A stretch of 64,000 nt of DNA from an uncultured Lichenihabitans sp. (lineage in GTDB: Bacteria > Pseudomonadota > Alphaproteobacteria > Rhizobiales > Beijerinckiaceae), in the NCBI GenBank assembly GCA_964243405.1, contig CAXTFJ010000005.1, forward strand, positions 9,882 to 73,881, given 5' to 3'. Every line of letters begins with the position of its first letter. Positions within the stretch are counted from its first letter, which is position 1. Position numbers and translations under genes: made by a program. The notes under the pieces were generated by a model, which was not told where the DNA came from, searched no databases, and worked only from the letters and a program-made list of their open reading frames with translations. Below, piece by piece: positions 1 to 16,922 of the stretch.

Positions 1-551
1 TGCGGCAGCAACGCCGCCAGCTCCGTCGCATCGCTGGCCACCCGGATGCCGCGGCCTCCGCCGCCGGCCGCGGCCTTGATCATCACGGGATAGCCGATAG
101 CCGCCGCGAAACTCGGAGCCGTTTCGAAATCCTCCAGCACGCCGTCGCTACCGGGCACCACGGGCACCCCGGCCGCGACCGCGGCCGTCTTGGCGGCGGC
201 CTTGTCCCCCATGGTGCGAATGGTTCCGGGCGTCGGGCCGATGAACACCAGCCCCGCGTTCTCGACCGCCTGGGCGAAACCGGCGTTCTCTGCCAGGAAC
301 CCGTAGCCGGGGTGGACGGCGTCGGCGCCGCTCTCCACTGCCGCGCGCAGGATCGCCTCGACGTTCAGGTAGGACTTGGAGGCCTGCGGCGGCCCGATCT
401 CGATCGCCGCATCCGCGAGTTTGACGGCCAGCATGTCGGCGTCCGCCCCGCTGTAGACCTGCACGGCGCGGCAACCGAGCGCGTGCGCGGCGCGGATGAT
501 GCGGACCGCGATCTCCCCCCTGTTCGCGATGAGGATGGTTTGCAGCGGCAC
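1..551 (-). CDS. Biotin carboxylase (ACC/urea-carboxylase-type BC subunit), N-terminal part; runs off the window edge
   Basis: Manual translation from GTG 551: MPLQTILIANRGEIAVRII...HPGYGFLAENA...MGDK...YPVMIKAAAGGGGRG, all hallmark BC motifs. Confidence 0.93.
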   Translation of the reverse strand, partial: MPLQTILIANRGEIAVRIIRAAHALGCRAVQVYSGADADMLAVKLADAAIEIGPPQASKSYLNVEAILRAAVESGADAVHPGYGFLAENAGFAQAVENAGLVFIGPTPGTIRTMGDKAAAKTAAVAAGVPVVPGSDGVLEDFETAPSFAAAIGYPVMIKAAAGGGGRGIRVASDATELAALLP

Positions 552-556
552 GGCTG

Positions 557-799
557 TCAGGTCTCGATGTCGACCAGCGGCTGCCCCGCCATCACGGCGT
601 CCTCGTCCTCGACGTGAAACCGGACGACGCGCCCCGCCACCTCGGCGGCCACCGCCGTGAAGGACTTCATCACTTCCACGAGCCCGAGCGTGTCGCCCAC
701 CGCCACGGCGTCGCCCACCTCCTTGAACACCGGCTGGTCGGGCGCGGGCCTGCGATAGAAGGTGCCGGGGAGCGGGCAGGGCAGCGTGGTCGTCGGCAT
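557..799 (-). CDS. Biotin carboxyl carrier protein (short, lipoyl/biotinyl domain only)
   Basis: MPTTTLPCPLPGTFYRRPAP...GLVEVMKSF; the E-x-M-K biotinylation motif is present. ATG 799 chosen over the longer ORF call. Confidence 0.92.
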   Translation of the reverse strand: MPTTTLPCPLPGTFYRRPAPDQPVFKEVGDAVAVGDTLGLVEVMKSFTAVAAEVAGRVVRFHVEDEDAVMAGQPLVDIET

Positions 800-912
800 G
801 GAGGCTCCGGATGCAGCGCCGCCGCCCCTGCAGGGTTCGTGCCGCCGACCGGGCGCTCGCGACCGGTCCCGTTCTTGCCTGATCCCGGCCAAACGCGCGG
901 AAAGGGGTGGCG

Positions 913-1635
913 ATGACGGTCTCGATCAACTGCGACATGGGCGAAGGCTACGGCCTGTTCAGGATCGGCGACGATGAGGGCATCATGCCGTTCATCACCA
1001 TCGCCAACGTGGCCTGCGGCTTCCACGCCTCCGACCCGAGCGTCATGCACCGCACCGTGCGGCTCGCCAAGCGGCACGGCGTCAAGGTCGGCGCCCACCC
1101 CTCCTTCCCCGACCTCCAGGGCTTCGGGCGCCGCGAGATGAAGATGGGGCGGGACGAACTCGTCGACTGCATCGTCTACCAGGTGGGCGCCCTGAAAGCC
1201 TTCCTGGACCTCGAAGGTTTGGCCCTGAACCACGTCAAGCCGCACGGCGCCCTTTACGGGGTCGCGAGCCGCGACGCCGAGGTCGCGGAGGCGGTCGCGG
1301 AAGCCGTGGCGGTCTTCGAGGTCCCGGTGCTCGGCATGGCGGGCACGGTCCACGAAACCGTCTACGCCGCCAAGGGCCTGACCTTCATCCCCGAATATTA
1401 CACGGACCTCGACTACACGGACGAGGGACGCCTGATCATCACCCGCGAGCACGAGGCCAAGGACCCCGTCGAGGCCGCGCGGCGTGCCGTGCGGGTCGCG
1501 ACGGACGGGCTCGCGACCTCGGTCGGCGGGCGCGAGTTCCCGGTCCGGGCGGAATGTTTCTGCATCCATTCCGACACCCCGAACGCGGTGGCGCTGGCGC
1601 GGGCCGTGAAGGACGCGCTGCAGCCCTGGATGTGA
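913..1635 (+). CDS. pxpA: 5-oxoprolinase subunit A / LamB-YcsF family
   Basis: INCDMGEGYG, ANVACGFHASDP, GAHPSFPD, HVKPHGALY and CIHSDTP motifs; AAAGGGG RBS before ATG 913. Confidence 0.93.
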   Translation: MTVSINCDMGEGYGLFRIGDDEGIMPFITIANVACGFHASDPSVMHRTVRLAKRHGVKVGAHPSFPDLQGFGRREMKMGRDELVDCIVYQVGALKAFLDLEGLALNHVKPHGALYGVASRDAEVAEAVAEAVAVFEVPVLGMAGTVHETVYAAKGLTFIPEYYTDLDYTDEGRLIITREHEAKDPVEAARRAVRVATDGLATSVGGREFPVRAECFCIHSDTPNAVALARAVKDALQPWM

Positions 1636-1638
1636 CGG

Positions 1639-2340
1639 TCAGCCGTTCAGGATCGCGAAGGCACGCACGGGTGAGCCCGAGCCTCCCTTGACCTTGAGCG
1701 GGACGCCGAAGAACTGGAACTCCCCCGCGCCGAGCAGGGCTTCGAGGTTCACCAGCCATTCCCAATGGCTCATGCCGAGGTCGCGGCACAGGCGGTGCTG
1801 GGCGAAGATGTCGTCGGTGGGCTTGTCGGTGGACGGCCCCTCGACGCCTTGCATGCGCGAGCCTCGGTCGTGGAGCCAGCGCGTTGCCTCGACCGTGAGG
1901 CCCGGGTTCTTCCACACGGAGTCGAGCGAGGGATAGGTCCGGGCGTGGAACCCCGTGCACAGCAGCACGATGTGGCCGTCCACCTTGAGGCCGGCGCGCT
2001 CCTCCGCGGCTTCCATGTGGGTCGCCGTGATGTCGCCGAGGTCGGGCACGTGGCGCAGGTCGAAACAGACCGCCTTGCCGAAGAACAGGTCGAGCGGCAT
2101 CTGGTCGACGGGCGCGCCGTCCGGCCCGGTGTGGCGGAACGCATCCACGTGGGTGCCGACGTGGTCGAGCATGGCCAGGAAATTGGTTTGGAACGTCATC
2201 GGGTCGCCCGGAACCCCCAGCCCCAGGGCCCGGCTGTTCTCGTGCGTCAGGTGCTCCGTGATGACCGGGCGCTGAAACAGCTTGTGGGCCGGCATGTTGT
2301 CTTCGAGGGTCAGGCTGAGGTCGATCACCCGTTGCGGCAT
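1639..2340 (-). CDS. Cyclase family metal hydrolase (kynurenine formamidase-like)
   Basis: IDLS N-terminus, HVGTHVDAFRH (HxGTHxDxxxH), E-x-LxNL and GGSGSPVRAFA. Confidence 0.92.
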   Translation of the reverse strand: MPQRVIDLSLTLEDNMPAHKLFQRPVITEHLTHENSRALGLGVPGDPMTFQTNFLAMLDHVGTHVDAFRHTGPDGAPVDQMPLDLFFGKAVCFDLRHVPDLGDITATHMEAAEERAGLKVDGHIVLLCTGFHARTYPSLDSVWKNPGLTVEATRWLHDRGSRMQGVEGPSTDKPTDDIFAQHRLCRDLGMSHWEWLVNLEALLGAGEFQFFGVPLKVKGGSGSPVRAFAILNG

Positions 2341-2371
2341 GCACAGCTCCTCAAGAAGGCGACCCGGGACC

Positions 2372-3400
2372 TCATACGGCCGTCAGATAGGGCGCGAAAC
2401 TGCGCGGCCGCTCGATGATGGCCACGATCTTGAGCTGCGCGATGGAGCGCTTGCAGGCGGCCGCGAGGTGGTCGCGCCACCATTCCGCGGCGGCCCGCGC
2501 CGACCCGTTCAACAGCAGGTCGATGGCGATCCGCAGTTCGGACACGGCGGTCTCGTCGTGCGGCAGGCCGAGGCGGTCGAGCGAGCGGGCAACCGCTTCG
2601 AGCGGCATAAGGTTGTGCCCGATCGCGTCTGCCAGGGCCTCGTTGCGGGTGCCCAGGACGCAGATTTCAAGGAAGTCGCGGAACAGCGAGGGCGCGTCCA
2701 CGCCGGGGTCGCCGTCGTGCCCCTCGGCACCGGACGCCCGGTCGCGCAGTTCGAGCAGCCTGGAGCGATCGATCGACGGCGCGGCCTCGGCCAGGGCCGC
2801 GGGTTCGAGGACGGCGCGCAAGGCGTAGCGGTCCTTGATGATCTTCGCGGTGAGGGGGCCGGCGATCCAGCGCGCCTGGAGCTTGCGCAGCAGCCCGCGC
2901 TCCTGCAACCGCCCCAGCACGTCGCGCACGACGGTTCGGCTGACCCTGTAGTGTTCGGCCAGTTCCGCCTCGACGATGCGGAACTGGCCGAACACGACGC
3001 AGCCCGCCACCTCGGCTTCCACGTCCGCCGCGATGCGTTCCCATGAGCCGCGCGCTTGCAGCGCCTCGTCGACGTCGTCGGACACGAGTAGGCCGAGCTC
3101 GCGCAGATCCGTCCTGATCGGCCGCAGTCCCGCCCCGGGCTGCCCCACGAGGAAGCCGCGGCCGTCGAACCGGTGGACCAGCTTGTCGCCTTCGAGGCGC
3201 CGCAAAGCCTTCTGGACGGGCGCGCGGCTGGTCTGCAGCAGGCCCGCGAGCGGCATTTCCAGCAGCACCAGGCCGCGGGGGAACCGGCCCTGCTGGATGT
3301 TGGCGCGCAGCACCCGGTGGACGAGCTCGTGTCGCTTCTCGAAACGCACTTCGGCGCCGGCGGCGCGATCCAGGACATCCGAAGGGGGGTCGTGCCGCAT
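2372..3400 (-). CDS. GntR-family regulator with two tandem wHTH domains plus FCD domain
   Basis: HTH1 ...LLQTSRAPVQKALRRLEGDKLV...GRGFLV; HTH2 ...EAELAEHYRVSRTVVRDVLGRLQERGLL; FCD-like C-terminus. Confidence 0.88.
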   Translation of the reverse strand: MRHDPPSDVLDRAAGAEVRFEKRHELVHRVLRANIQQGRFPRGLVLLEMPLAGLLQTSRAPVQKALRRLEGDKLVHRFDGRGFLVGQPGAGLRPIRTDLRELGLLVSDDVDEALQARGSWERIAADVEAEVAGCVVFGQFRIVEAELAEHYRVSRTVVRDVLGRLQERGLLRKLQARWIAGPLTAKIIKDRYALRAVLEPAALAEAAPSIDRSRLLELRDRASGAEGHDGDPGVDAPSLFRDFLEICVLGTRNEALADAIGHNLMPLEAVARSLDRLGLPHDETAVSELRIAIDLLLNGSARAAAEWWRDHLAAACKRSIAQLKIVAIIERPRSFAPYLTAV

Positions 3401-3638
3401 GCGTCAGGAACGTCGTTTGTGTGCAGTCGTATTGAACACTATGGCCGGATGTGCCTTGCAGGCAAGAATAAGGTTCAAACAAATCCTGTGCAGAATGCCG
3501 TGCCTTTGGGCGGCGGGCGCCCACTAGATGGCCTTGCGTACAAAAGACGTTGTTTCTAGGCTAGCGGACGTTCGGCTTCCAGTCGGTGGGCAGCGCTTGC
3601 GGTCAGCCACCAATCGTTTCGATGCAGGCTCCAGCGCC

Positions 3639-4721
3639 GTGTTGCGCATCGAGGGCGTGTCGAAGAGCTACGGGCCCAAGCTCGCGCTCGACGACGTCAC
3701 GTTGAGCTTGGCGGACGATTGCTACGTGGCTCTCCTGGGATCGAGCGGCTCGGGCAAGACCGTCCTGCTGCGCGCCATTGCGGGCTTCGAAACGCTCGAC
3801 CGGGGTAGCGTGATGCTGAGGGGGCAGCCGCTGGCGAGCGTCCCCGCGCACCGGCGCAGCATCGGCTTCGTGTTCCAGAACTTCGCGCTGTTTCCGCACC
3901 TGTCGGTAGAGCAGAACATCGGCTTCGGGCTGCGCAACCGGGCCGAGGGGGCCTTGGCGCCAAAGGTGGTCGCCGACAGGGTCCGGGCCATGGTCCAGCT
4001 GGTGGGCCTCGCGGGATTGGAATCGCGGGCCGTGACGCAGATCTCCGGCGGCCAGCGCCAGCGCGTAGCCCTCGCCCGCACGCTCGTGACCGAACCCCGG
4101 CTGGTTCTGCTCGACGAGCCCCTGGGCGCGCTCGACGCCAACCTCCGCACCCGGATGTGCGGCGAGCTCCGCCGCATCCGCGAGAGGCTCGGCGTGACCT
4201 TCCTTCACGTGACGGGCAGCGAAACCGAGGCTCTCGCGATGGGCGACGAGGTGGTCGTGCTCGACGAAGGCCGGATCGCCCAGGTCGACGCGCCCGACGT
4301 CGTCTACGGACGGCCCGCGGATGCGCGCGTGGCGCGGTTCCTCAACTGCTACAACCTGTTCAGGGGCCGTTCCGGACCGACGGGTTTCGAAGCCGAAGGG
4401 GCCGTGCTGCCCGTCCCCACGGGTCGTGGCGGGTCGAATGAGGCCGTCTACGCGGTGCGCCGCGACCTCATCCTGGTCCGCGACCCCGCCGCGGCCGCGG
4501 CCCCCGACGAAGGGCGGATCGCGGCCGAGTTCGTGACGAGCGAATATTCCGGTCCGTCCGTCACCTCCTTCTTCCGCCTCCCAAGCGGCGCGATCGTCAC
4601 GGTGGACGACCACCTGAGCCACCGCGCCGTGCCCTCGTTCGAGCCCGGGCACCGCTACGACCTGGCGTGGAAGCGGGACGACGCCCTCGTGCTCGGCTCG
4701 GGCCGCGAGCGGCGCGCATGA
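3639..4721 (+). CDS. ABC transporter ATP-binding protein (PotA/MalK-like) with atypical H-loop
   Basis: GSSGSGKT, VFQNFALFPH, ISGGQRQR and LLDEP present; H-loop reads VTGSE. Start uncertain (GTG 3639 preferred; ORF open from 3528). Confidence 0.9.
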   Translation: MLRIEGVSKSYGPKLALDDVTLSLADDCYVALLGSSGSGKTVLLRAIAGFETLDRGSVMLRGQPLASVPAHRRSIGFVFQNFALFPHLSVEQNIGFGLRNRAEGALAPKVVADRVRAMVQLVGLAGLESRAVTQISGGQRQRVALARTLVTEPRLVLLDEPLGALDANLRTRMCGELRRIRERLGVTFLHVTGSETEALAMGDEVVVLDEGRIAQVDAPDVVYGRPADARVARFLNCYNLFRGRSGPTGFEAEGAVLPVPTGRGGSNEAVYAVRRDLILVRDPAAAAAPDEGRIAAEFVTSEYSGPSVTSFFRLPSGAIVTVDDHLSHRAVPSFEPGHRYDLAWKRDDALVLGSGRERRA

Positions 4722-5620
4722 CAGCGATCAGCGACACCGCCCTCGCGACCCCGGTTGCGAGCGCTCCCGCGGTCCGCGGCAACGCCACGCCCTATTGGCT
4801 CATCGCCCCGGGCGTCCTGTGGATGCTCCTGTTCCTCGTCCTGCCCATCGCGATGATGGTCTACGTGTCGTTCTGGACGCAGACGACGTTCAGGATCCAG
4901 CCGATCCTCACCACCAAGAGCTGGCAGACCTTCTTCAGCAGCCCGACCTACCTGGGTGCGCTGTGGACGACGGTCCGCATCTGGCTGACGGTGCTCGCCG
5001 CCACGGTGGTGGTGGGCTACCCGACCGCGCTGTTCGTCGGCCTCCTGGTCCGCAACAAGACGGTCGCGACCGCCCTGCTGGTGCTGTGCGTCATCCCGTT
5101 CTGGACGTCCTTCCTCATCCGCGTGCTCGCCTGGCGCCCGATGCTGGGCGAGCAGGGCGCGATCAACATCATCCTGCAAGACCTTCACCTGATCTCGCAG
5201 CCGATCAGCGCGCTGCTGTTCACGGAACTGTCGGTGGTGATCGGCATGACGCAGATCTACTGCGTCTTCATGGTGGGGCCGATCGCCTTCACCCTGGGCC
5301 GCATCGATCCCAACGTCATCGAGGCGGCCCAGGACCTCGGCGCCAGCTTCTGGCGCATCTTCCGGACAATCATCTTCCCGCTCAGCCTGCCGGGTGTGGT
5401 CACCGGCGCCATCTTCGTGTCGGTGATGGTCTTGGGAGAGTTCGCCACCGCCGCGGCGCTATCGGGCCGCAAGGTCAACCTGCTGGGCAACATCATCGTG
5501 ACGCAGGTGGGCTCGCTCAAATGGGCCTTCGCGGCCGTGGTGGGCGTGGTGCTGACGCTGGTGATGGGCGCGGTCGTGGCGGGCCTGCTCCGGCTCGTCG
5601 ACCTCAGGCGGGAGCTCTAG
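4718..5620 (+). CDS. ABC permease (PotB-like)
   Basis: Multiple TM segments and EAAQDLGA EAA loop; ATGA overlap with the upstream gene. Confidence 0.92.
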   Translation: MTAISDTALATPVASAPAVRGNATPYWLIAPGVLWMLLFLVLPIAMMVYVSFWTQTTFRIQPILTTKSWQTFFSSPTYLGALWTTVRIWLTVLAATVVVGYPTALFVGLLVRNKTVATALLVLCVIPFWTSFLIRVLAWRPMLGEQGAINIILQDLHLISQPISALLFTELSVVIGMTQIYCVFMVGPIAFTLGRIDPNVIEAAQDLGASFWRIFRTIIFPLSLPGVVTGAIFVSVMVLGEFATAAALSGRKVNLLGNIIVTQVGSLKWAFAAVVGVVLTLVMGAVVAGLLRLVDLRREL

Positions 5621-5625
5621 CGCCA

Positions 5626-6471
5626 ATGCGCGCCCCGGCCCTAAAACCCGCCCTCGCGGTCTACACCGCCCTGTTCCTGCTGTTCCTCTACGGCCCGATG
5701 CTGGTGCTCGCCATCCTGTCGTTCCAGACGGGACCCGAGGGCGGACCGCAATTCCCCATCGTCGAATGGTCGACCTACTGGTACCGCGACCTGTTCGGCC
5801 TCAACCCGCCCTCGCGCATCGCGCCCCTGCCGATCCGGGACGGGCTGTTCCGGTCGCTGACGCTCGCGCTCGCCACGACGGTGGTCTCGACCACGCTGGG
5901 GGTGATGTCCGCCCAGGCCTTCCGCGAGCGGTTCAGGGGGTCGGGCGCAGTCTTCTACCTCATCGTGCTCGGCATGATGGTGCCCGGCGTGCTCGTGGGC
6001 CTCGGGACGGCGCTGCTCGCCAACACGTTGGGCATCGACCGCGCGTGGTGGAGCACGTCCTTCGTGCTCCACGTGGTCTACACCTACCCCTTCGCCTTCC
6101 TGGTCATGCTGGCGATCTTCAACCGCTTCGACCCGACGGTCGAGGAGGCCGCCTGGTCGCTCGGCGTCACGCCCCTGCGGACCTTCAGGACCGTGACGTT
6201 CCCCCTGATCTTCCCCGGCGTGCTGTCGGCGATGCTGTTCTGCTTCACGCTGTCCTACGACGAGTTCGCGCGCACGCTGTTCACGTCGGGCCGCGACCTG
6301 ACGCTGCCGTTGGCGATCTACGGCACGTTCTCGGTGGAGATCCACCCCAACATCTTCGCCTTCGGGGTCCTCACCACACTGTTCTCGCTGGCGCTGCTCG
6401 CCGTCTACGCGGCGCTGATGACGCTGTCGGTGCGGCGCGCCCGGCGCGTCCTGGTCCAGGAGGAGGCGTGA
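5626..6471 (+). CDS. ABC permease (PotC-like)
   Basis: TM segments, EEAAWSLG EAA loop, FTLSYDEF and TLPLAIY. Confidence 0.92.
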   Translation: MRAPALKPALAVYTALFLLFLYGPMLVLAILSFQTGPEGGPQFPIVEWSTYWYRDLFGLNPPSRIAPLPIRDGLFRSLTLALATTVVSTTLGVMSAQAFRERFRGSGAVFYLIVLGMMVPGVLVGLGTALLANTLGIDRAWWSTSFVLHVVYTYPFAFLVMLAIFNRFDPTVEEAAWSLGVTPLRTFRTVTFPLIFPGVLSAMLFCFTLSYDEFARTLFTSGRDLTLPLAIYGTFSVEIHPNIFAFGVLTTLFSLALLAVYAALMTLSVRRARRVLVQEEA

Positions 6472-7208
6472 TGGCCGTCAAGGGCGTGGCGATCGTCACG
6501 GGCGCGGGCTCTGGCATCGGGCTCGCCATCGCGGCGCGGCTCGCGCGCGACGGCTACGCGGTCGTGGTGAACGACCTCAGGCCCAAATCCGCCGAGGCCG
6601 CGGTGGCGGCGATCGTCGAGGCGGGCGGCTCGGCGGTCGCGGCACCGGGCGACGTGTCGCGCGAGGCGGACGTGGCCGCGATCGTGGCCGCGGCCGACGC
6701 GCTCGGGCCCTGCACCCTGCTCGCCAGCAACGCGGGCTTCGTCCACCAAGCCCGGTTCGTGGACCTCACGGCCGCCGATTGGGACCGGATGTTCGCGGTC
6801 CACGTACGCGGCGCCTTCCTGACCGCTCACGCGGTTCTGCCGGGCATGATCGCGCGGGGGCGCGGCAGCATCGTCTTCACAGCCTCCCAGCTGGGGCAGA
6901 TCGGCGGGGTCGAGCTCACCCATTACAGCGCCGCGAAGGCGGCCCTCATCGGACTCACCAAGTCGCTGGCGCGCGAGGTCAGCGCGCTCGGCGTGCGGGT
7001 CAACGCGGTCGCGCCCGGGCCCATCAACACGCCGCTGGTCAAGGACCTGTCGGAGGACTGGCGGCGCGCCAAGGCAGCCGAGCTGCCCCTGGGTCGCTTC
7101 GGCGAGCCCGAGGACGTGGCCGCCACCGTCGCGTTCCTGGCCTCCGACGAGGCTCGGATCTACGTGGGCCAGACGCTCGGCCCTAATTCCGGGGACGTGA
7201 TGCTGTGA
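6471..7208 (+). CDS. SDR oxidoreductase (FabG-like)
   Basis: TGAGSGIG, SNAG, YSAAK and VNAVAPG. Confidence 0.92.
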   Translation: MAVKGVAIVTGAGSGIGLAIAARLARDGYAVVVNDLRPKSAEAAVAAIVEAGGSAVAAPGDVSREADVAAIVAAADALGPCTLLASNAGFVHQARFVDLTAADWDRMFAVHVRGAFLTAHAVLPGMIARGRGSIVFTASQLGQIGGVELTHYSAAKAALIGLTKSLAREVSALGVRVNAVAPGPINTPLVKDLSEDWRRAKAAELPLGRFGEPEDVAATVAFLASDEARIYVGQTLGPNSGDVML

Positions 7209-7215
7209 GGGCGCC

Positions 7216-7968
7216 ATGCGGACGGTTCTGATCACGGGCGCGGGCATCGGCATCGGCCGGGCCACCGCGCAGGCCTTCGCCAAGGCGGGGTACCGGGTGA
7301 TCGTGACCGACATCCTGGAGCGCGACGGCGCGGAGGTGGCGGACGGCATCGGGGCCGAGGGCGGCACGGCCGAGTTCCACCCGCTCGACGTCAGCTCCAC
7401 CCTTGACGCGGACGCGCTCGTCGCGAAGGTCGAGGCGGCCCACGGGCCGCTCGACTGCATCGTGGCCAACGCCGGCATCGCGCACCGGGTGCCGCTCGAC
7501 CAGCTCACCGACGCCAAATGGGACCACACCTTCGAGGTCGACCTGAAAGGCATGCTGCGCGTCATCCGCCCGGCCGTGCCCGCCATGCGCCGCGCGGGCC
7601 GCGGCACGATCATCTGCCTGTCCTCCATCATGGGGGTGGCCTACGGCTGGGACGAGCACGTCGCCTATTCTTCCGCCAAAGCGGGCGTGGTGGGCCTCGT
7701 GCGGGGGCTCGCGGTGGAACTCGCGCGCTCGGGCCTTCGCGTGAACGGCATCGCGCCCGGCTACGTGCGGACCGCGCAGCTGCTGTCCGAGGAGCACTCG
7801 CTGGGGCCTGCGGGCGCGGAGGCGGCTCCCGCCTTCATTCCGATGGGTCGGCTCGGGGAGCCGGGCGACATCGCCGACGTGGCGCTGTTCCTGGCTTCCG
7901 ACGCCGCCCGCTACATGACGGGGCAAGTGATCGCGGTCGACGGCGGTCTGCTGGTCGGCCGGTACTGA
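7216..7968 (+). CDS. SDR oxidoreductase
   Basis: TGAGIGIG, ANAG, YSSAK and VNGIAPG. Confidence 0.92.
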   Translation: MRTVLITGAGIGIGRATAQAFAKAGYRVIVTDILERDGAEVADGIGAEGGTAEFHPLDVSSTLDADALVAKVEAAHGPLDCIVANAGIAHRVPLDQLTDAKWDHTFEVDLKGMLRVIRPAVPAMRRAGRGTIICLSSIMGVAYGWDEHVAYSSAKAGVVGLVRGLAVELARSGLRVNGIAPGYVRTAQLLSEEHSLGPAGAEAAPAFIPMGRLGEPGDIADVALFLASDAARYMTGQVIAVDGGLLVGRY

Positions 7969-7989
7969 AACGACAAAGGAGATCAGGCG

Positions 7990-9222
7990 ATGACAGACAG
8001 GCATTTCGACCGACGCACGCTTCTGAAAACCGGAGCAGGGGCCGCCGCGCTTGCGCTGGGCGGGGGCACGCCGCTTCTGTCCTCGCGCCGCGCCTACGCG
8101 GCCGCGAGCGCGGTCGGCAACGAGCAGCTCCGCACCATCGGCCTGTCGGTCACGGTGCAGGACCGTATCCTGGCCGATTTCAAGAAGGAATCGGGTGTCG
8201 GCTCGACCTCGGGCACCGCCGCGACCTTCCCGGACGCCCAGACCAAGATCCTGTCGGGCTCCAAGGATTACGATTGCTGGGAAACAATCGGCGAGCGCCT
8301 GCCCGCCGTGGTCCAGACCAACAACATCGACGCGCTGCCGGTGTCGGAGGTGAAGAACTGGGCCAACATCCGGGACACGTTCACCAAGGCCAATCCCAAG
8401 TGGGATTCCAAGGCGCAGATCACCGGCCAGATCTGGGCCGACGACGCCCATACGAAGCTGTGGATGGTGCCGGCCGTCTACAATTACGACTCGATCGGCT
8501 ACAACCCCGACAAGCTTTCCGCCGAGGAGGCCAACAGCTGGACGGCCATCTTCGACCCCAAATACAAGGGCCGGTCGGGCCTCAACACCGATCCGCTGAT
8601 CGCCTTCGGCCAGGCGATCCTGGCCATGACGTCGCTGAAGCTGCTCGACGCCAAGAACCCGGGCAACCCCACCAAGGAGGAGATCGAGGAAGGCGCCAAG
8701 TTCCTGATCTCCAAGAAGAAGGATGGCCAGTTCCGCGCCCTGTGGGGTGACTTCGGCGAGCTCGTCAACCTGCTGGCGTCGGGCGAGATGGTGGTGTGCG
8801 ACGCCTGGCAACCCGCCGTCATGGCCGTCAAGGCGCAGGGCAAAGCCTGCAAGTACGCGGTTCCGAAGGAAGGCTATCGCGCCTGGTCGATCGGCCCCTC
8901 GATGATCGCCGGCACGCCCAACAAGGACGCTGTGCTGGCCTACGCGGACTATTGGCTGTCGGGGCCGCCCGGCATCACCGTTTCGGAGCAGGGCTACTAC
9001 TCGCCCTCGACCAACATCCAGAAGGTGATGGACCCGGACCGATACGCCTTCTGGTACGAGGGCAAGCCCTGGAAGGGCGCCACCGACCGCGGCATCAAGG
9101 AAGGCGACCTGCGCGACGGCGGCTCGCTCCCCGAGCGCGCCGCCCACGTGGCCTACTGGCACCAGTGGCCGGACGAGTACGACATGCTCATCTCGAAGTG
9201 GGACGAGTTCCTCAACGCGTGA
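7990..9222 (+). CDS. ABC substrate-binding protein (PotD/PotF-like fold) with Tat signal
   Basis: DRRTLLK twin-arginine signal; SWTAIFDP and PKEGYRAW motifs; AAAGGA RBS. Confidence 0.9.
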
Positions 9223-9249
9223 CGGTTCTGCCCTGACGCCAGGGTGCCG

Positions 9250-9278
9250 CCCTTCTCCCGCGTCCCGTGGGAGAAGGG
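9250..9278. repeat. Perfect 10-bp inverted repeat (REP-like or mRNA-stabilising hairpin) after the SBP gene
   Basis: CCCTTCTCCC-N9-GGGAGAAGGG with no U-tract, between the SBP and ATPase genes. Confidence 0.6.
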
Positions 9279-9293
9279 AATTTGGAGCTTCCC

Positions 9294-10394
9294 TTGACCT
9301 ACGATCTCGAGCTGATCGGCGTCGGCAAGACCTACGACAGCGGCGCCCCGGCCGTGATCGACTTCGACCTCACCGTGACCAAGGGCGAGTTCGTGGCCTT
9401 CCTGGGCCCGTCGGGCTGCGGCAAGACCACGACGTTGCGCATGATCGCGGGCTTCGAGCGGATCACGCGGGGCGACATCTTCATCCGCGGCAAGCGCATC
9501 AACGACCTGCCGCCCGAACGCCGCCCGACCTCCATGATCTTCCAGAACTACGCCCTGTTCCCGCACATGAGCGTGCGGCGCAACGTGGGCTACGGGCTGG
9601 AGGTCAAGGGGCTCGCCAAGCCCGAGCGCGACCGCAAGGTCGATCGCATCCTCGACACGCTGGGGCTCGCCGAGGTGGCGGACCACAGGCCCGACCGGCT
9701 GTCGGGCGGCCAGCGGCAGCGGATCGCGCTGGCGCGCGGCCTCGTGGTGGAGCCAGACATCCTGCTGCTGGACGAACCCTTGGGCGCGCTCGACGCCAAC
9801 CTGCGCCACGCCATCCAGGCGGAACTCAAGCTGCTGCAGGTCAACCTCGGCATCACCTTCATCTTCGTGACCCACGCGCAGTCCGAGGCGCTGACGATGT
9901 CGGACCGCATCGTGGTGATGAACGGCGGCCGCATCGAACAGGTGTCCTCGCCGCGCGATCTGTATACCCGGCCGAAGACGCGCTTCGTGGCCCAATTCAT
10001 CGGCCGCAACACGATTTTGACCGGCGTGCTGGACAGCGTCGACGGCGGGCTCGGCCGCGTCAGCACTCCATTCGGCCGTTTCACGGGCGTCGCGGACGGC
10101 GCCGTCAAGCCCGGTGCTGCCGCGTCGCTCGTGGTGCCGGCCGAAGCCTTCACCATGGCGGCCGCGGAGGCGGGCGCCGCGGAAGCGGACGGCAACGCGG
10201 TCGACGCGCGGATCGAAACGCGCGACGTGGTCGGTCCCATCGTGCGGTTCCAGCTTGCCGTTCCGGGAGGCCAGCAGGTCGCGCTGGAAGGCCATATGGG
10301 GCGCTACGGCGGGAGTTTCGCGGCCGGCTCGCCGGTCCGCGTGTCCTGGAACGCGCAAAGCGCTACCGTGATCCCCAGTGCGGAAGCGGCCTGA
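9294..10394 (+). CDS. Second ABC ATP-binding protein (PotA-like)
   Basis: [22 protein letters not shown] and VTHAQ; TTG start with GGAG RBS (ORF open from 9267). Confidence 0.92.
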
Positions 10395-10420
10395 GCCGCC
10401 CGCGTCACCAGGAGGAAGAG

Positions 10421-11302
10421 ATGCCCAAAGAGATCCTGTGCGGGTTCGGGGTCGATGTCGACGCGGTGGCGGGCTGGCTCGGCTCCTACGGCGGCGAGGA
10501 CTCGCCCGACGATATTTCCCGCGGGCTGTTCGCGGGCGAGGTGGGCAGCCCGCGGCTGCTCAGGATGTTCGAGCGGCTCGGCCTCAAGACGACCTGGTTC
10601 ATCCCCGGCCATTCGATTGAGACGTTCCCGGCCGAGATGCAGGCGGTCGCCGATTCTGGCCACGAGATCGGCATCCACGGCTACAGCCACGAGAACCCGA
10701 TCGCGATGACGCGCGAGCAGGAGACCGAAATCCTCGACAAGTGCATCGAGCTCGTCACCAAGCTGTCGGGCAAGCGCCCGACCGGCTACGTGGCGCCCTG
10801 GTGGGAGTTCTCGACCGTCACCAACGAACTGCTGCTGGAACGCGGCATCAAATACGACCACTCGCTGATGCACAACGACCACCAGCCCTACTACGTCCGG
10901 GTGGGCGACAGCTGGACCAAGATCGACTACGCGGGCAAGCCGTCGGACTGGATGGTGCCGCTCAAGCGGGGGGTGGAGACCGACCTGATCGAGATCCCGG
11001 CCTCGTGGACGCTCGACGACCTGCCGCCCATGATGTTCATCAAGAAGGCGCCCAACAGCCACGGCTTCGTCAACCCGCACGACATCGAGCAGATGTGGCG
11101 CGACCAGTTCGACTGGGTCTACCGGGAATACGACTACGCGGTGTTCCCCATCACCATCCATCCCGACGTGTCGGGCCGCCCGCACGTGCTGATGATGCTG
11201 GAGCGGCTCTACGCCCACATGATCTCGCATCCGGGGGTGCGCTTCGTGACCATGAACGAGATGGCCGACGACTTCGCGAAGCGCTCGCCGCGCGCCAAGT
11301 AA
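10421..11302 (+). CDS. Polysaccharide deacetylase (CE4) family protein, PuuE/HpPgdA-like
   Basis: [24 protein letters not shown] and [11 protein letters not shown]. Confidence 0.9.
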
Positions 11303-11366
11303 GTTTTCAGCCGAGACCGTCCGCCCGCGCGGGCGGGAAGCGGAACCGAGCGGGGGAGGGCGGCTC

Positions 11367-11693
11367 ATGTGCGCGCTATGCGGCGTTCTCGGCGGCTCGG
11401 AGCACTGGGCGGACGCGCACGACCGGCCCGGCGCCTTCACGCGGAACACGGGGCCCGTAGAGCGGCGGCGCGAGCGCGCGCGGCGCGTCGCGCGGGCCAA
11501 CGACCTGCTGGGACCCCTCGGCCTGACCCTGGGGGACTGGCAGGGCAGCGCCTACCTGCTGTCGACCCGCACGGGTAAGACCGAGATCGTCGACACGCTG
11601 GCCCACCTCTGGGCCTCGGCGGAACGGCTGCTCGGCCGCCCGGTCGACCCGCTCGACCCCGTTTGGCTGGGCCGCCTGGAGGCGCGCGGGTGA
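11367..11693 (+). CDS. Hypothetical 108-aa protein with N-terminal CxxC...HW
   Basis: MCALCGVLGGSEHW; GC-rich codon usage; GGGGAGG RBS; GTGA overlap with the CobW gene. Confidence 0.8.
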   Translation: MCALCGVLGGSEHWADAHDRPGAFTRNTGPVERRRERARRVARANDLLGPLGLTLGDWQGSAYLLSTRTGKTEIVDTLAHLWASAERLLGRPVDPLDPVWLGRLEARG

Positions 11694-12700
11694 GCGGGGT
11701 CCCGCCCCGCACGCCCGTGGTCCTGCTCACCGGCTTCCTCGGCTCGGGCAAGACGACGCTGCTGGCCCGCCTGCTCAGGGACCCGGCCCTGTCCGACAGC
11801 GCGGTGCTGATCAACGAGTTCGGCGAGGTCGGGCTCGACCACCACCTGCTGGAGCGGGTGGACGAGACCACCGTGCTGCTGAAGTCCGGGTGCCTGTGCT
11901 GCACCGTGCGGGGCGAACTCGCGACCGCCCTGCGCGACCTGCACTCCCGCCGCACGCGGGGCCTCGTGCCACCGTTCCGCCGCGTGGTGCTGGAAACGAC
12001 GGGTCTCGCCGACCCGCTGCCGGCGCTCACCACGATCGCGGCCGAGCCGGTGCTGCGCCATCATTTCCGCGTGGGCGCCGTGGTGACGACCGTGGACGCC
12101 GTCAACGCGCGCGACCAGCTCCGCCGCCAGCCCGAGAGCGTCAAGCAGGTCGCGGTCGCGGACAGGCTGGTGCTGACCAAGACGGACCTGTGCGGTGAAG
12201 CGGAGGAGGCGGCCGTCGTTCTCGCCCTGCGCACCCTCAACCCGGACGCGCCGATCGTGACCGTCGCGGACCTCGACGCCCAGGCGCTTCTTTCCGATCC
12301 GTCGGCCGCCGCGGGCTTCAGCGAGTTCCGATGCCTGCCGATCGCCGTCGACAGTGGAGCCACGAGCGCCGAGCGCCACGGTGGGTCCGTGGCCTCCCTG
12401 TCGCTGGTGATCGAGGCGCCGCTCGACTGGACGCTGTTCGGCCTGTGGCTCAGCCTGCTGCTGAGCCGTCACGGCGACCGCGTGCTGCGCGTCAAGGGCC
12501 TGCTCAATATCCAGGGCGCCGTCGGGCCGGTGGCGGTGCACGGCGTTCAGAGCCTCGTCCACGTGCCCACCCACCTGGCCGCCTGGCCCGATGCGGAGCG
12601 CAGCTCCCGCCTCGTGTTCATCACCCGCGACCTTGCGCCCACCCTCATCGCCCGCTCGCTGCAGGCCTTCGGGGTGACGCCCGTGCCCGTTCCCGCCTGA
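11690..12700 (+). CDS. COG0523/CobW-family metallochaperone GTPase
   Basis: GFLGSGKTT, NEFGE, GCLCC, ETTGLADP, LTKTD and RVKGL CobW C-domain. Confidence 0.93.
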   Translation: MSGVPPRTPVVLLTGFLGSGKTTLLARLLRDPALSDSAVLINEFGEVGLDHHLLERVDETTVLLKSGCLCCTVRGELATALRDLHSRRTRGLVPPFRRVVLETTGLADPLPALTTIAAEPVLRHHFRVGAVVTTVDAVNARDQLRRQPESVKQVAVADRLVLTKTDLCGEAEEAAVVLALRTLNPDAPIVTVADLDAQALLSDPSAAAGFSEFRCLPIAVDSGATSAERHGGSVASLSLVIEAPLDWTLFGLWLSLLLSRHGDRVLRVKGLLNIQGAVGPVAVHGVQSLVHVPTHLAAWPDAERSSRLVFITRDLAPTLIARSLQAFGVTPVPVPA

Positions 12701-12701
12701 C

Positions 12702-13889
12702 GTGGGGATCCCCGCGAGGCGACCCCGGCTGCGCGTGCTCGGCACGGAGATCACCCTGGTCGAGCCGCTGCGACGGCAGGCGGAGCGGGACCTCGGCATC
12801 GACCTCGTCTTCGAGACGCTCGACTTCCCGTCCGCGCAGCGCAAGGCCGCCGTCGAGCCGGGCAGCTTCGACATCTACGACCAGTGTTTCCACAACCTCG
12901 ACATCGTCTGGTTCTGGCGCGCGATCCAGCCCATCGCGCTCGATCGGATCGCCTGCTGGGGGGACGTGAGCGACCTCACCAAGGCCGGCCGCCTCGGGCC
13001 GCAAGCCTCGACCGGGCGCGGCGACGCTCCGGTGAAGAAGCTCTACGTCCAGCCGGACCATTCGCTCGGGTCGGCGCGGACCGACCGCATCAGCATGCTG
13101 CCGACCGTGCACAACCTCGATTCCTTCGCCTACTGGCCCGACCTGTTCGGGGACCGGCGGCCCGAGGCGGCGAGCTGGGGGTGGCTGTTCGACCGGGAAG
13201 CCAAAGGGTGCCTCGCGCTCGTCGACGAGCCGGCGATCGGCGTGTTCGACGCGGCGCTGGCGCTCGAAGCCCGGGGTGAGGTCGCGTTCGACGATATCGG
13301 CAACCTGTCAATCGCGGAGATCGACAGGTTGATGGCCCTGCTCTGGGGCTATCGCAAGGACGGGCATTTCTCGGGGTTGTGGCGCACGGCCGAACGCGCC
13401 GCCGCCAGCATGGTGGCGGGCAAGGCGCGCATCGGCAGCATGTGGTCGCCGGGCATCGCGGCGGTGATGCGGGCCGGCCGGCAGGTGGTCGAAGCCGTGC
13501 CGCGGGAGGGCTATCGGGCCTGGCACAGCGGCCTGTGCCTGTCCGCGCGGCTGACGGGCGAGGCGCTCGACACGGCCTACCGCTACCTGAACTGGTGGCT
13601 CGACGGCGCGGCGAGCGCCGTCATGGCGCGACAGGGCTTCTACATGTCGGTGCCCGAGCGGGCGCGAGCCCGCATGAAGCCCGCCGAATGGGCCTACTGG
13701 TACGACGGCAAGCCGGCCTCGACCGATCTCCCCGGCCCCGACGGGCAAGCCATGATCGGGGCGGGACGGTCGCGACCCGGAGGCTCCTACTGGGAACGGG
13801 CGAGCCGCATTTCCGTGTGGAACACCACGATGGACGAGTACAATTACCTCGCGCGCCAATGGGCCCAGTTCGCCGCTTCCTTCGATTGA
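12702..13889 (+). CDS. Substrate-binding-protein paralogue without a recognisable signal peptide
   Basis: Aligns by eye along its length with 7990..9222 (PREGYRAW, YWYDGKP, GGSYWER, DEY) but starts directly in the mature domain. Confidence 0.82.
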   Translation: MGIPARRPRLRVLGTEITLVEPLRRQAERDLGIDLVFETLDFPSAQRKAAVEPGSFDIYDQCFHNLDIVWFWRAIQPIALDRIACWGDVSDLTKAGRLGPQASTGRGDAPVKKLYVQPDHSLGSARTDRISMLPTVHNLDSFAYWPDLFGDRRPEAASWGWLFDREAKGCLALVDEPAIGVFDAALALEARGEVAFDDIGNLSIAEIDRLMALLWGYRKDGHFSGLWRTAERAAASMVAGKARIGSMWSPGIAAVMRAGRQVVEAVPREGYRAWHSGLCLSARLTGEALDTAYRYLNWWLDGAASAVMARQGFYMSVPERARARMKPAEWAYWYDGKPASTDLPGPDGQAMIGAGRSRPGGSYWERASRISVWNTTMDEYNYLARQWAQFAASFD

Positions 13890-14158
13890 GCGTCCCGGGG
13901 CACTTTCCGGTCCGTTTCGGCACGGGGTCGTCGTGTGCCGGGCAGACGACCGAGCGGATGGCCATGACCGGAGCCCTGGCAGGCAGACGCACGGTACCCG
14001 TCGCCACCCGGGTCGTCGAAAAGCCGTTCGACAACGCGCTCTGCCTGCCGGTGGGCGAAGCGTTCCAGCGTGGTTGTGGCGCAAGGCGCGTCGCGCGTCG
14101 CCTTGGCATCGGCCGTGCTACGGCGAAGGCCGATCCATCTGTTTCGTGCAGGACGACC

Positions 14159-15355
14159 ATGCCCACCGTCGAGACCAAACGCCTCCTCGCCGATCTGGAT
14201 CACCTGCGCACGATTGGCGCCTTCAAGACCGGCGTGCACCGGCCGACCTTCGGGCCCGAGGACATGGAAAGCCGACGCTGGCTCATGGCGCAGATGGACG
14301 CCGTCGGACTCGAGCCCATTCTGGACGGCATCGGCAACGTCATGGGACGGCATCGCGGACCTGGCCCGCATCTCCTGGTGGGCAGCCACATCGAGACGCA
14401 GAACCAGGCGGGCTGGCTCGATGGCGCGCTCGGCGTCATGACGGCGCTCGCTTTGGCCCGGGCCGGGCTCGCGGTCGACGTTTGCGCCTACGCGGACGAG
14501 GAAGGCCACTGGGGCAACATGATCGGCAGCCGCAGCCTGGTGGGCGACCTCGCGGAGGACGACATCGACCGCGCGCGCAATCGCGAGGGCGTTCCCCTGC
14601 GCGATGCCCTGGAAACCGCAGGTCTGGCCGGCTTGCCGCGCCTCGCCCTCGAAGGCGACCGCTACCGGGGCGCCCTCGAGCTGCACATCGAGCAGGGCAC
14701 GCAACTGGAGGGCAGGGATCTCCGGATCGGGGTTGTCACCGGGATCGTGGCGATCCGCCAGTTCAAGATCGTGGTCGAGGGCCAGCAGGACCATACGGGC
14801 GGCACCACGATGGCGGAGCGGCGCGACGCCGCCCTTTCGGCCGTGCGGCTGATGGCGGCGATCGACATAGAATTCCCCAGGGTCTGCGGTGAACGCAGCG
14901 TGTGGACCACCGGCCGCATCCTGGTCGAACCCAACCAGCCGATGATCATTCCGGGCCGCTGCGAACTCTCCTTCTCGTTCCGCGACCTTTCCGAAACCGT
15001 GATGGACCGGATGGAAGCCTGCCTTCGCGCGCTGGTGCGCGAGAGCGTCCGGCGCGAACGCTGCGCGGTCACGATCGAAGAGGTCAGCCGGCTGAAGCCG
15101 GAACTCTGCGACGGCCGCATCGTCGAAGCGTTCGAGGCCTCGGCGCGGGACCTCTGTCCCGGCGCCTGGCAGAGGATGCAAAGCGGCGCGTTGCACGACA
15201 GCCAGGTGCTGGCGCGCCGCGTGCCGATGGGCATGCTGTTCGTCCCCTCGATCGGCGGCATCAGCCACCATTGGACCGAGGACACCAGGCGCGAGGACCT
15301 CGAACTCGGCTGCCAGGTCATGGCCGGAGCCGCGGAACGTCTGTTGGCGCGCTGA
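14159..15355 (+). CDS. M20 Zn-dependent amidohydrolase (allantoate amidohydrolase/N-carbamoylase family)
   Basis: GSHIET, DGALG, DEEG, ELHIEQG, DHTGGTTM, SGALHD, GGISHH; ATG 14159. Confidence 0.92.
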   Translation: MPTVETKRLLADLDHLRTIGAFKTGVHRPTFGPEDMESRRWLMAQMDAVGLEPILDGIGNVMGRHRGPGPHLLVGSHIETQNQAGWLDGALGVMTALALARAGLAVDVCAYADEEGHWGNMIGSRSLVGDLAEDDIDRARNREGVPLRDALETAGLAGLPRLALEGDRYRGALELHIEQGTQLEGRDLRIGVVTGIVAIRQFKIVVEGQQDHTGGTTMAERRDAALSAVRLMAAIDIEFPRVCGERSVWTTGRILVEPNQPMIIPGRCELSFSFRDLSETVMDRMEACLRALVRESVRRERCAVTIEEVSRLKPELCDGRIVEAFEASARDLCPGAWQRMQSGALHDSQVLARRVPMGMLFVPSIGGISHHWTEDTRREDLELGCQVMAGAAERLLAR

Positions 15356-15627
15356 CGGGGGGCCGGTGACCGTACTAGGAGGTTCGCTGCCCTCCCCGTC
15401 GATCGCGAGCGGGGTGGGTTGATCTGAAAACCTTCCAAGCCCGAGGGTCCGTCCGGGATGGCCTGGCTCATGCGCCCCACGCGGCTTCGGAGCCGGTCGA
15501 GCGGGTCGCCCGCGGGCAAGGGAACGCGGCCCGAGGCCGGATTTGTCCGACTTTCGGATGATTGCACGAACCGCCCCGCGGCTTACGGTTCGGCAAGGAT
15601 GTGCCTCGTCCGGTGAGGGACTTCAGG

Positions 15628-16869: not shown

Positions 16870-16922
16870 GGGATCAACCCCTCGCTCGACCTTCCCCTGC
16901 CCGAAGCCCTTGGAGACCACCG

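Follow-up and report, generated by a model that had tools for sequence, protein, structure and literature searches.

A GntR-controlled operon encoding a cyclic-imide hydrolase-type protein and a recurrently co-located biotin-linked Pxp module in an uncultured Lichenihabitans sp.

Organization of the locus

Near the start of a 64,000-nucleotide stretch of DNA from an uncultured Lichenihabitans sp. (hereafter the window; positions 9882-73881 of contig CAXTFJ010000005.1) lies a plus-strand row of genes (3639-13889) encoding an ATP-binding cassette (ABC) ATPase, two permeases, two short-chain dehydrogenases/reductases (SDRs), a substrate-binding protein (SBP) with a twin-arginine translocation (Tat) signal, a second ATPase, a carbohydrate esterase family 4 (CE4) protein, a 108-aa open reading frame (ORF), a COG0523 GTPase and a signal-less SBP. 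These genes are tightly packed, with intergenic gaps of -4 to 64 nt, and form the core of a GntR-controlled operon in which the CE4 protein is a predicted cyclic-imide hydrolase (imidase). A biotin-linked Pxp gene set, a cyclase-family gene and an M20-family gene lie beside the operon.

Genes were called from third-position G+C (GC3 frame) in a stretch with a G+C content of 68-72%, and each was then checked with Pfam and NCBIfam. All of the genes listed in a first-pass annotation, made from the sequence alone, were found by these means: biotin carboxylase (BC), biotin carboxyl carrier protein (BCCP), PxpA, the cyclase, two SDRs, CE4, M20, CobW, an ABC importer and GntR. The importer had been described there as a single Tat-SBP system; the Tat SBP importer is present, but with two SBPs and two ATPases rather than one of each. 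In the following list, coordinates prefixed L005 refer to the same contig including the sequence upstream of the window.

L005:7205-8194, shortly before the window begins: PxpC-like protein (CT_A_B)
L005:8172-9047, shortly before the window begins: PxpB-like protein (CT_C_D)
3-551, minus strand: BC N-terminus, 183 aa; whole gene L005:9044-10432, 462 aa; Biotin_carb_N, CPSase_L_D2 and Biotin_carb_C; NCBIfam NF009471, 743.9 bits (cut-off 686)
557-799, minus strand: BCCP, 80 aa, EVMK biotinylation motif; Pfam Biotin_lipoyl; Rhizobium johnstonii orthologue annotated as 243 nt
907-1635, plus strand: PxpA (LamB/YcsF) lactam-hydrolase subunit; LamB_YcsF, E 2.5e-89; NF003814, 281.6 bits (cut-off 226)
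1639-2340, minus strand: cyclase-family metal amidohydrolase (kynurenine formamidase/isatin hydrolase fold); Pfam PF04199; 31 nt downstream of the GntR gene
2372-3400, minus strand: GntR regulator, 342 aa; Pfam GntR (two stretches) and FCD
3534-3543, plus strand: operator-like element TTGCGTACAA, from the intergenic alignment of congeners
3639-4721, plus strand: ABC ATPase 1, PotA class, with TOBE_2 tail; Pfam ABC_tran and TOBE_2, NCBIfam
4718-5620, plus strand: ABC permease 1; BPD_transp_1; 69-84% identical in rhizobial and other operon loci
5626-6471, plus strand: ABC permease 2; BPD_transp_1
6468-7208, plus strand: classical SDR 1; adh_short; in 28 of 30 operon loci
7216-7968, plus strand: classical SDR 2; adh_short; in 29 of 30 operon loci
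7990-9222, plus strand: SBP1, periplasmic PotD/PotF class, twin-arginine signal (N-terminus ...FDRRTLLK...); SBP_bac_8
9267-10394, plus strand: ABC ATPase 2, PotA class; Pfam, NCBIfam
10421-11302, plus strand: CE4 cyclic-imide hydrolase-type protein, 293 aa, predicted cytoplasmic; PDB 3qbu/4ly4 match
11367-11693, plus strand: orf108, 108-aa MCxLCG...HW protein; no Pfam or NCBIfam match
11690-12700, plus strand: COG0523 (CobW-family) GTPase; Pfam cobW (PF02492) and CobW_C (PF07683)
12702-13889, plus strand: SBP2, signal-less SBP paralogue; SBP_bac_8
14159-15355, plus strand: M20 hydantoinase/carbamoylase-family amidohydrolase; TIGR01879, 255.7 bits (cut-off 204)

The BCCP reading frame is open to 892; the ATG at 799 is the likelier start and the gene was re-called from there.

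Identity of the CE4 protein

By sequence, the CE4 protein is a Zn-type cyclic-imide hydrolase (CIH) of the HP0310/CIH/HxnM branch (EC 3.5.2.16). It aligns without gaps to Helicobacter pylori HP0310 (PDB 3qbu/4ly4; E 6.7e-151, ~77% identical, residues 1-293 against 34-326 of 3qbu_A), its N-terminus MPKEILCG aligns with Met1 of HP0310, and no signal peptide is present. Compared with the residues listed for the HP0310 structure, the Zn ligands Asp14, His86 and His90 and the catalytic Asp12 and His247 are all kept at the same numbers, and the pocket-closing residues Trp127, Trp196, Tyr23 and Leu201 are kept, as is W128 (PMC3084791). That structure has a small buried pocket, HP0310 lacks a signal peptide and did not turn over N-acetyl polysaccharides, and its authors pointed to kinship with PuuE and to the gene context with HP0312 (PMC3084791), which is a COG0523 protein.

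HP0310 has been grouped with the Pseudomonas putida cyclic-imide hydrolase AAY98498 and with the fungal enzyme HxnM, whose closest structural homologue is HP0310 (PMC9304392, PMC8478523); the family link of the window protein to AAY98498 runs through HP0310 and rests on these two studies. HxnM opens 3-hydroxypiperidine-2,6-dione, a compound made by the SDR HxnW, and the amidase HxnN deamidates the product; fungal SDR-imidase and amidase genes form conserved pairs (PMC9304392, PMC8478523).

The CE4 protein had been called PuuE-like in the first-pass annotation. A PuuE-type allantoinase was ruled out, as the protein reached 78.2 bits against a cut-off of 424.6 for TIGR03212 and its Asp-His-His metal site is intact. 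PuuE, a tetramer whose pocket is small and occluded, is a fellow member of this CE4 sub-branch if the term is taken broadly, but is metal-independent and carries Glu-His-Trp in place of Asp-His-His. The industrial imidase BpIH falls in this metal-independent, PuuE-like branch, being 91% identical to PDB 3s6o, which matches the window protein at E 1.6e-12 only.

The family to which the CE4 protein belongs is large and strongly conserved: more than 8000 matches, 84-92% identical across Alphaproteobacteria and Myxococcota, all carry the name 'polysaccharide deacetylase', and relatives occur in the genomes of at least 594 species.

Conservation of the operon and its amidase partner

Co-conservation was assessed in 80 related loci with 10-kb flanks, against which every window protein was scored and in which all ORFs were clustered. 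The 12-gene GntR-controlled operon (3639-13889) is kept in the same order in 30 of these loci, each operon gene and GntR being found in 28-30 of the 30. Among the 30 are loci of Rhizobium, Agrobacterium, Ensifer, Shinella, Aureimonas, Labrys, Thioclava and Verminephrobacter. Congeners keep the operon too, and gene order is shared from this genus to Rhizobiaceae, Aurantimonadaceae, Paracoccaceae and Comamonadaceae. The co-conservation predicted in the first-pass annotation thus holds for the operon with its GntR gene and extends to a Pxp/biotin gene beside most operon loci (counts below); it does not hold for M20, and the cyclase stands beside GntR only within the genus.

On plasmid pRL12 of R. 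johnstonii 3841, the annotated genes begin with a LysR gene divergent from PxpA-BCCP-BC-PxpB-PxpC. They continue with a GntR gene divergent from an ATPase, two permeases, two SDRs, an SBP, an ATPase, a 'polysaccharide deacetylase', a hypothetical protein, a GTP-binding protein and an SBP; an amidase and a cyclase-family gene are appended at the operon end, and operon order is otherwise identical to that of the window. The genes of this cluster are tagged RL_RS33615-RL_RS33705, and a VapBC-type toxin-antitoxin pair directly follows it (L116 18098-18762).

The appended amidase recurs. An amidase-signature amidase orthologous to the rhizobial enzyme (44-77% identical) adjoins the imidase in 31 of 93 loci, and in three congeners the amidase gene lies inside the operon, between ATPase 2 and the imidase, and its product is 54% identical to the rhizobial enzyme. 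An asparaginase gene takes the place of the amidase after SBP2 in two loci (L069, L081) and lies upstream of GntR in another (L053). Clusters in Pseudomonas, Halomonas and Paraburkholderia that have a major facilitator superfamily (MFS) transporter keep GntR, the amidase, the imidase, one or more SDRs and the signal-less SBP. In Ensifer (L021, L030; 15135-18319), the genes that come after the amidase encode an AraC regulator and HyuA/HyuB-type hydantoinase/oxoprolinase proteins, which places another ATP-dependent lactam opener beside the same operon.

The M20 protein, which the first-pass annotation had placed in the pathway as a carbamoylase-type enzyme, is a neighbour and not a conserved member of the system. 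Its family model (TIGR01879) is reached, but M20 and the class-III aminotransferase gene that begins 207 nt after it are found in none of the 30 operon loci. Of 30 congeners, 8 have an M20 orthologue, on a contig other than that of the imidase and flanked by neither SBP2 nor the aminotransferase, and in the window M20 homology begins ~270 nt past the SBP2 stop. M20 was accordingly rejected as a pathway member.

The imidase trio and the binding-protein paralogue

Within the operon, the imidase, orf108 and the COG0523 GTPase form a trio that is complete in 68 of the 69 loci whose flanks are long enough. The trio of Reyranella is isolated, its neighbours being FtsK, PqiA and MlaD genes. In congener locus L103 (14679-16052), the imidase is followed by SBP2 after ~430 nt and orf108 and COG0523 are undetectable, the chaperone pair seemingly having been lost there.

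The orf108 protein has no Pfam or NCBIfam match, and its 583 homologues are every one named 'hypothetical'. Cys2, Cys5 and Trp14 never vary, and His13 hardly does. The AlphaFold2 model (pLDDT 78) has a predicted alpha/beta core, for which Foldseek returned no PDB match at E <= 0.001. The start of the GTPase gene overlaps the orf108 stop codon (GTGA) and lies 388 nt downstream of CE4. The GTPase carries the GSGKTT P-loop and the GCLCC motif of COG0523 metallochaperones; the equivalog models for CobW, ZigA and YjiA-like proteins were not reached.

SBP2 is 28% identical to mature SBP1 in a BLASTP alignment that begins at SBP2 residue 9. It is signal-less in the operon loci that have a clear start and in MFS-type clusters that have no ABC system, from which it may be concluded that SBP2 probably works in the cytoplasm; Tat-signal versions of SBP2 exist elsewhere, as ordinary binding proteins. 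Because SBP2 is kept in the Pseudomonas, Halomonas and Paraburkholderia clusters (L082, L083, L085), where an MFS transporter is found and an ABC system is absent, its role appears to be tied to the enzymes and not to transport.

Searches for relatives that might indicate a ligand gave little. In the PDB, SBP1 had weak matches to PotF/PotD (E ~1e-5) and SBP2 had none, and an Atlas search with SBP1 returned unnamed PotD/PotF clusters alone, with no ligand clue. SDR 1 and SDR 2 gave generic FabG-like PDB matches and no specific relatives, and NCBIfam was likewise generic for the SDRs.

Regulation of the operon

The GntR protein has two tandem winged-helix domains before its FCD domain and is 342 aa long, as compared with ~230 aa for ordinary FadR-type proteins. 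An orthologue with the same architecture is present in 29 of the 30 operon loci. When the GntR-operon intergenic regions of congeners are aligned, the -35 position of the operon promoter is seen to hold a conserved TTGCGTACAAAA element, a further copy of which lies close to the regulator gene. In the window, a pattern search found the exact element once, at 3534-3543, and a degenerate second copy lies near 3413-3427; TTGCGTACAA is a half-palindrome of the TTGTATACAA type. The operator-like element, written TTGC[AG]TACAA, is shared between this genus and rhizobia, which carry it in the corresponding intergenic region. The TTGCGTACAA element is likely to be the GntR operator. Because the conserved promoter/operator sits at 3534-3543, the start of ATPase 1 was placed at ~3639 and not at 3528.

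An Rfam scan that covered the region plus 10.9 kb upstream of it gave one match only, a spurious miRNA, and thus no riboswitch, such as a guanidine riboswitch ahead of the carboxylase. Scans for consensus sigma-70 promoters and terminators were uninformative at 70% G+C.

The Pxp/biotin module and the cyclase

Upstream of the operon, PxpA is transcribed divergently from BCCP. Because PxpB-like and PxpC-like genes follow BC just outside the window, the set of PxpA, BCCP, BC, PxpB and PxpC is complete. As in PxpABC, PxpA passes the NCBIfam PxpA subfamily model, and the PxpB- and PxpC-like proteins carry CT_C_D and CT_A_B domains, which are also those of urea carboxylase. Canonical PxpABC 5-oxoprolinase, which has no biotin parts, was rejected: the PxpA model was reached, but the PxpB-like and PxpC-like proteins did not reach the equivalog models (TIGR00370, 72.1 bits vs 145.55; NF045499, 215.5 bits vs 500), and the unit also contains the BC and BCCP genes. 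The PxpB- and PxpC-like proteins are closer to the carboxyltransferase domain of urea carboxylase. Urea carboxylase/urea amidolyase was rejected in turn, the genes being split, the pieces scoring 109-517 bits against a TIGR02712 cut-off of 1303.85, and the cluster containing no allophanate hydrolase. The domain sum of the window BC, BCCP and PxpA/B/C proteins is, we presume, that of Aspergillus LamA plus LamB in split form; LamA and LamB are needed in Aspergillus for the use of 2-pyrrolidinone.

We read the Pxp/biotin module as separable from the operon but repeatedly found beside it. In 23 of the 30 operon loci the 10-kb flank contains a Pxp or BC gene, whereas among the 50 non-operon loci PxpC and PxpB are found in none and BC, BCCP and PxpA in one (L074, a partial cluster variant). 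Five of the 12 congeners that have both the module and the imidase show the synteny of the window. The window PxpA is only 39% identical to R. johnstonii PxpA (L117 385-1161), as compared with 64-78% identity for BC, PxpB and PxpC, and PxpA leads the operon in Rhizobium while it is divergent in the window; the PxpA subunit may have been exchanged. A 2026 cryo-EM study of mycobacterial PxpBC homologues (MSMEG_0435-0436) found that they bind BCCP and have no urea carboxylase activity, and no reaction was assigned.

The cyclase contains HVGTHVDAFRH, which conforms to the HxGTHxDxxxH metal motif, and scores 109.8 bits with PF04199 and 56 bits against a cut-off of 223 with TIGR03035 (arylformamidase); its PDB matches are isatin hydrolase and KynB (E ~4e-10). 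Five loci, from four genomes of the genus, hold a syntenic copy of it with 78-85% identity. Outside those congener loci it was found in a metagenome locus (L020) that matches one of them, and some Rhizobium clusters contain a distant paralogue.

A proposed catabolic island and its alternatives

On balance, although with considerable reserve, the region is read as an accessory island of separable modules, by which small cyclic imides and lactams would be catabolized for their nitrogen and carbon. Gene identities, residue conservation, co-conservation and the operator-like element in the operon promoter region are observed; the order of steps, the roles of the SDRs and the class of substrate are drawn from family chemistry together with the Hxn precedent. 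At the core would be one GntR-repressed operon (3639-13889), whose PotD-class ABC importer, with Tat-exported SBP1, would take up the compound. The two SDRs would oxidize hydroxyl groups, one of them probably converting a hydroxy-lactam (hemiaminal) to a cyclic imide, as HxnW does in Aspergillus, while the other may act on the ring-opened hydroxy half-amide. The cytoplasmic, Zn-dependent imidase would open the ring to yield a half-amide, its metal presumably loaded by the orf108 CxxC protein and the COG0523 GTPase, and SBP2 would bind the substrate or an intermediate in the cytoplasm. The half-amide would be deamidated by the operon-encoded amidase in congeners and rhizobia and by asparaginase in some taxa; because the operon of this genome lacks an amidase gene, another amidase, or possibly the adjacent M20 protein, must serve here. 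Related lactams may be opened by PxpA with BCCP-BC-PxpB-PxpC, as a split bacterial form of the ATP- and biotin-dependent LamA/LamB enzyme, and by the cyclase-family hydrolase, both co-located with the operon and probably separately regulated.

Several observations weigh against such an island. The SDR roles are guesses because the relatives of both proteins are generic only. The window operon has no amidase, the interval between ATPase 2 and the imidase being 26 nt, and no close amidase orthologue was found elsewhere in this genome, the best match being 39% identical. Binding proteins of the PotD class usually bind amines and not neutral imides. The Pxp module occurs without the imidase in two congeners, and lies far from it or on a different contig in six others; in Rhizobium and Aureimonas it has its own LysR regulator. 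The pattern search of the window found no operator copy before PxpA/BCCP or M20, so that there is no sign of GntR control over the Pxp module or M20, and a GntR operator preceding these genes as well was rejected. Finally, operon-type and stand-alone imidases are intermixed, with no separate clades, in a quick, poorly supported tree whose search had not finished. On this weak result, a specialized clade of operon imidases was rejected, and the imidase is therefore not regarded as specialized for the operon. Together with the extreme sequence conservation, the intermixed tree suggests that the imidase acts on much the same substrate wherever it occurs, and that the operon supplies this substrate from an imported precursor.

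The alternative that best withstands these data, although it is itself doubtful, is a mosaic in which chance has brought together units that share no common substrate: a Pxp/biotin module for 5-oxoproline or lactams, a cyclase paired with GntR, an ABC importer of amines accompanied by SDRs, a housekeeping imidase trio for the repair or detoxification of a spontaneous cyclic imide, and M20. The mixed tree, the lone trio of Reyranella, the imidase beside HP0312 in H. pylori, the occurrence of the Pxp module alone under its own LysR regulator, and the lack of linkage of M20 and the aminotransferase elsewhere would all be expected of such a mosaic. It is opposed by the close packing of the 12 operon genes and their order, shared from this genus to other families, by the retention of the SDRs, the amidase, the signal-less SBP and GntR with the imidase even where the transporter has changed to an MFS type, and by the association of Pxp genes with operon loci as against at most one of the non-operon loci.

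It is unlikely that CE4 is a true N-deacetylase or esterase, in an operon that takes up an N-acetylated amine, such as an acetyl-polyamine or an amino-sugar derivative, deacetylates it and leaves further processing to the SDRs. The importer is of the PotD/PotA class, every database name is that of a polysaccharide deacetylase, and HP0310, in a report that also counts against an imidase function, is described as a peptidoglycan deacetylase and acetyl-esterase, active on acetylated xylan, chitin and p-nitrophenyl acetate and affecting peptidoglycan acetylation (PMC3688963). Against these points stand the small buried pocket of HP0310 and its inactivity toward N-acetyl polysaccharides in the tests of the structure's authors (PMC3084791), and the finding that the characterized close relatives are cyclic-imide hydrolases (PMC9304392, PMC8478523). 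Moreover, what recurs beside the imidase is a hydrolase of primary amides, either an amidase or an asparaginase, for which deacetylation would have no use, and none of the conserved operon genes is one for handling acetate or amines.

The first-pass annotation had envisaged one complete catabolic route. Its theme of cyclic-amide ring opening stands; in place of a single route there are an imide operon, a separable lactam module and unlinked neighbours. A version in which the imide operon and the Pxp module do form a complete route can be framed, although it is quite improbable. An imported hydroxylated piperidinone or pyrrolidinone would be converted to 2-oxoglutarate or succinate: SDR 1 would make the imide, the chaperone-loaded imidase would open it, and SDR 2 would oxidize the resulting hydroxy half-amide to a keto half-amide that cyclizes spontaneously to a hydroxy-lactam (e.g., 2-hydroxy-5-oxoproline), which the split LamA/LamB-type enzyme, dependent on ATP and biotin, would reopen, while SBP2 would carry or sense the labile intermediate in the cytoplasm. 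Such a route, if true, would provide the first function for orphan biotin-linked PxpBC proteins.

Hardly credible is the ureide or hydantoin scheme of the first-pass annotation, in which a PuuE-like CE4 opens a ring and M20 removes a carbamoyl group, in parallel to the path from allantoin to allantoate to ureidoglycine: M20 scores above the cut-off of its hydantoinase/carbamoylase family model, sits where rhizobia have the amidase and lies 7 kb from CE4 in one distant relative (G050), and PuuE is the nearest characterized branch outside the HP0310 group, but M20 is missing from all operon loci, lies beyond a 270-nt gap in the window and on a different contig in congeners having both genes, without SBP2 or aminotransferase flanks, while CE4 keeps the metal triad that PuuE lacks and fails the PuuE model, and the structure paper showed no allantoinase-type role for HP0310 (PMC3084791).

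Relation to known systems

The closest characterized counterpart of the trio, HP0310 (termed HpPgdA) with HP0312, matches the window in its 293 residues, its Zn site and catalytic Asp/His, its lack of a signal peptide and its COG0523 GTPase neighbour. Unlike the window copy, which lies within a transporter/SDR catabolic operon, the H. pylori module stands alone and has been discussed as a cell-wall or virulence factor, and reports on the activity of HP0310 disagree.

The lower nicotinate pathway of A. nidulans (HxnW-HxnM-HxnN) resembles the bacterial clusters in bringing together SDR(s), an imidase and an amidase of the same families. The bacterial clusters add an ABC or MFS importer, the COG0523/CxxC pair, a signal-less SBP and a GntR regulator with tandem winged helix-turn-helix domains, and the present genome lacks the amidase gene. 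Hydroxylase, monooxygenase and Old Yellow Enzyme genes of the HxnS/X/V/T type were absent by Pfam from window positions 1-17000 and the 10 kb upstream, so nicotinate would not be the starting compound. The full fungal Hxn pathway was therefore rejected, with lower-pathway enzyme types alone being present.

In Blastobacter sp. A17p-4, work by Ogawa, Soong and Shimizu reportedly defined an imidase and then a half-amidase, by which rings of the succinimide and glutarimide type are opened to half-amides that a dedicated amidase then hydrolyzes. This imidase-amidase logic matches the gene pairing seen across taxa; unlike the window clusters, the route was defined biochemically, without an operon as far as the literature searched shows.

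Because the system partly matches imidase and half-amidase chemistry and the HxnW/M/N steps, it is less of an orphan pathway than the first-pass annotation held, while no characterized bacterial operon of this kind was found in the literature searched. The enzyme family, the COG0523 neighbour and the imidase-then-amidase logic are already known. Not described in that literature are the bacterial operon with its importer, two SDRs, cytoplasmic SBP and tandem-domain GntR, and the recurrent linkage to a biotin-dependent Pxp set.

These findings bear on an imidase family with thousands of members, 80-93% identical across proteobacterial classes, uniformly labelled 'polysaccharide deacetylase' in public databases and treated in H. 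pylori as a cell-wall virulence factor. Here the imidase appears to be the ring-opening step of a conserved catabolic operon that is also carried on rhizobial megaplasmids, and the copy in the model strain R. johnstonii 3841 provides a tractable genetic system for finding its real substrate. The operon further offers a defined candidate as the client of a COG0523 metallochaperone and of the unannotated CxxC protein that accompanies it, a conserved SBP paralogue that is probably cytoplasmic, and a physiological context for biotin-linked PxpBC homologues, including those of mycobacteria.

Flanking regions

The transport genes beyond PxpC, at L005 1-6800, code for an MFS transporter and an ECF/cobalt-type ABC pair; an SDR, a TetR regulator and a nucleoside hydrolase are also encoded there, and none of these genes is conserved beside the operon in other loci. 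Downstream of the aminotransferase gene, at window positions ~16900-18527, G+C content falls to 0.61 over a gene for a DppA-like binding protein, as compared with ~0.70 around it.

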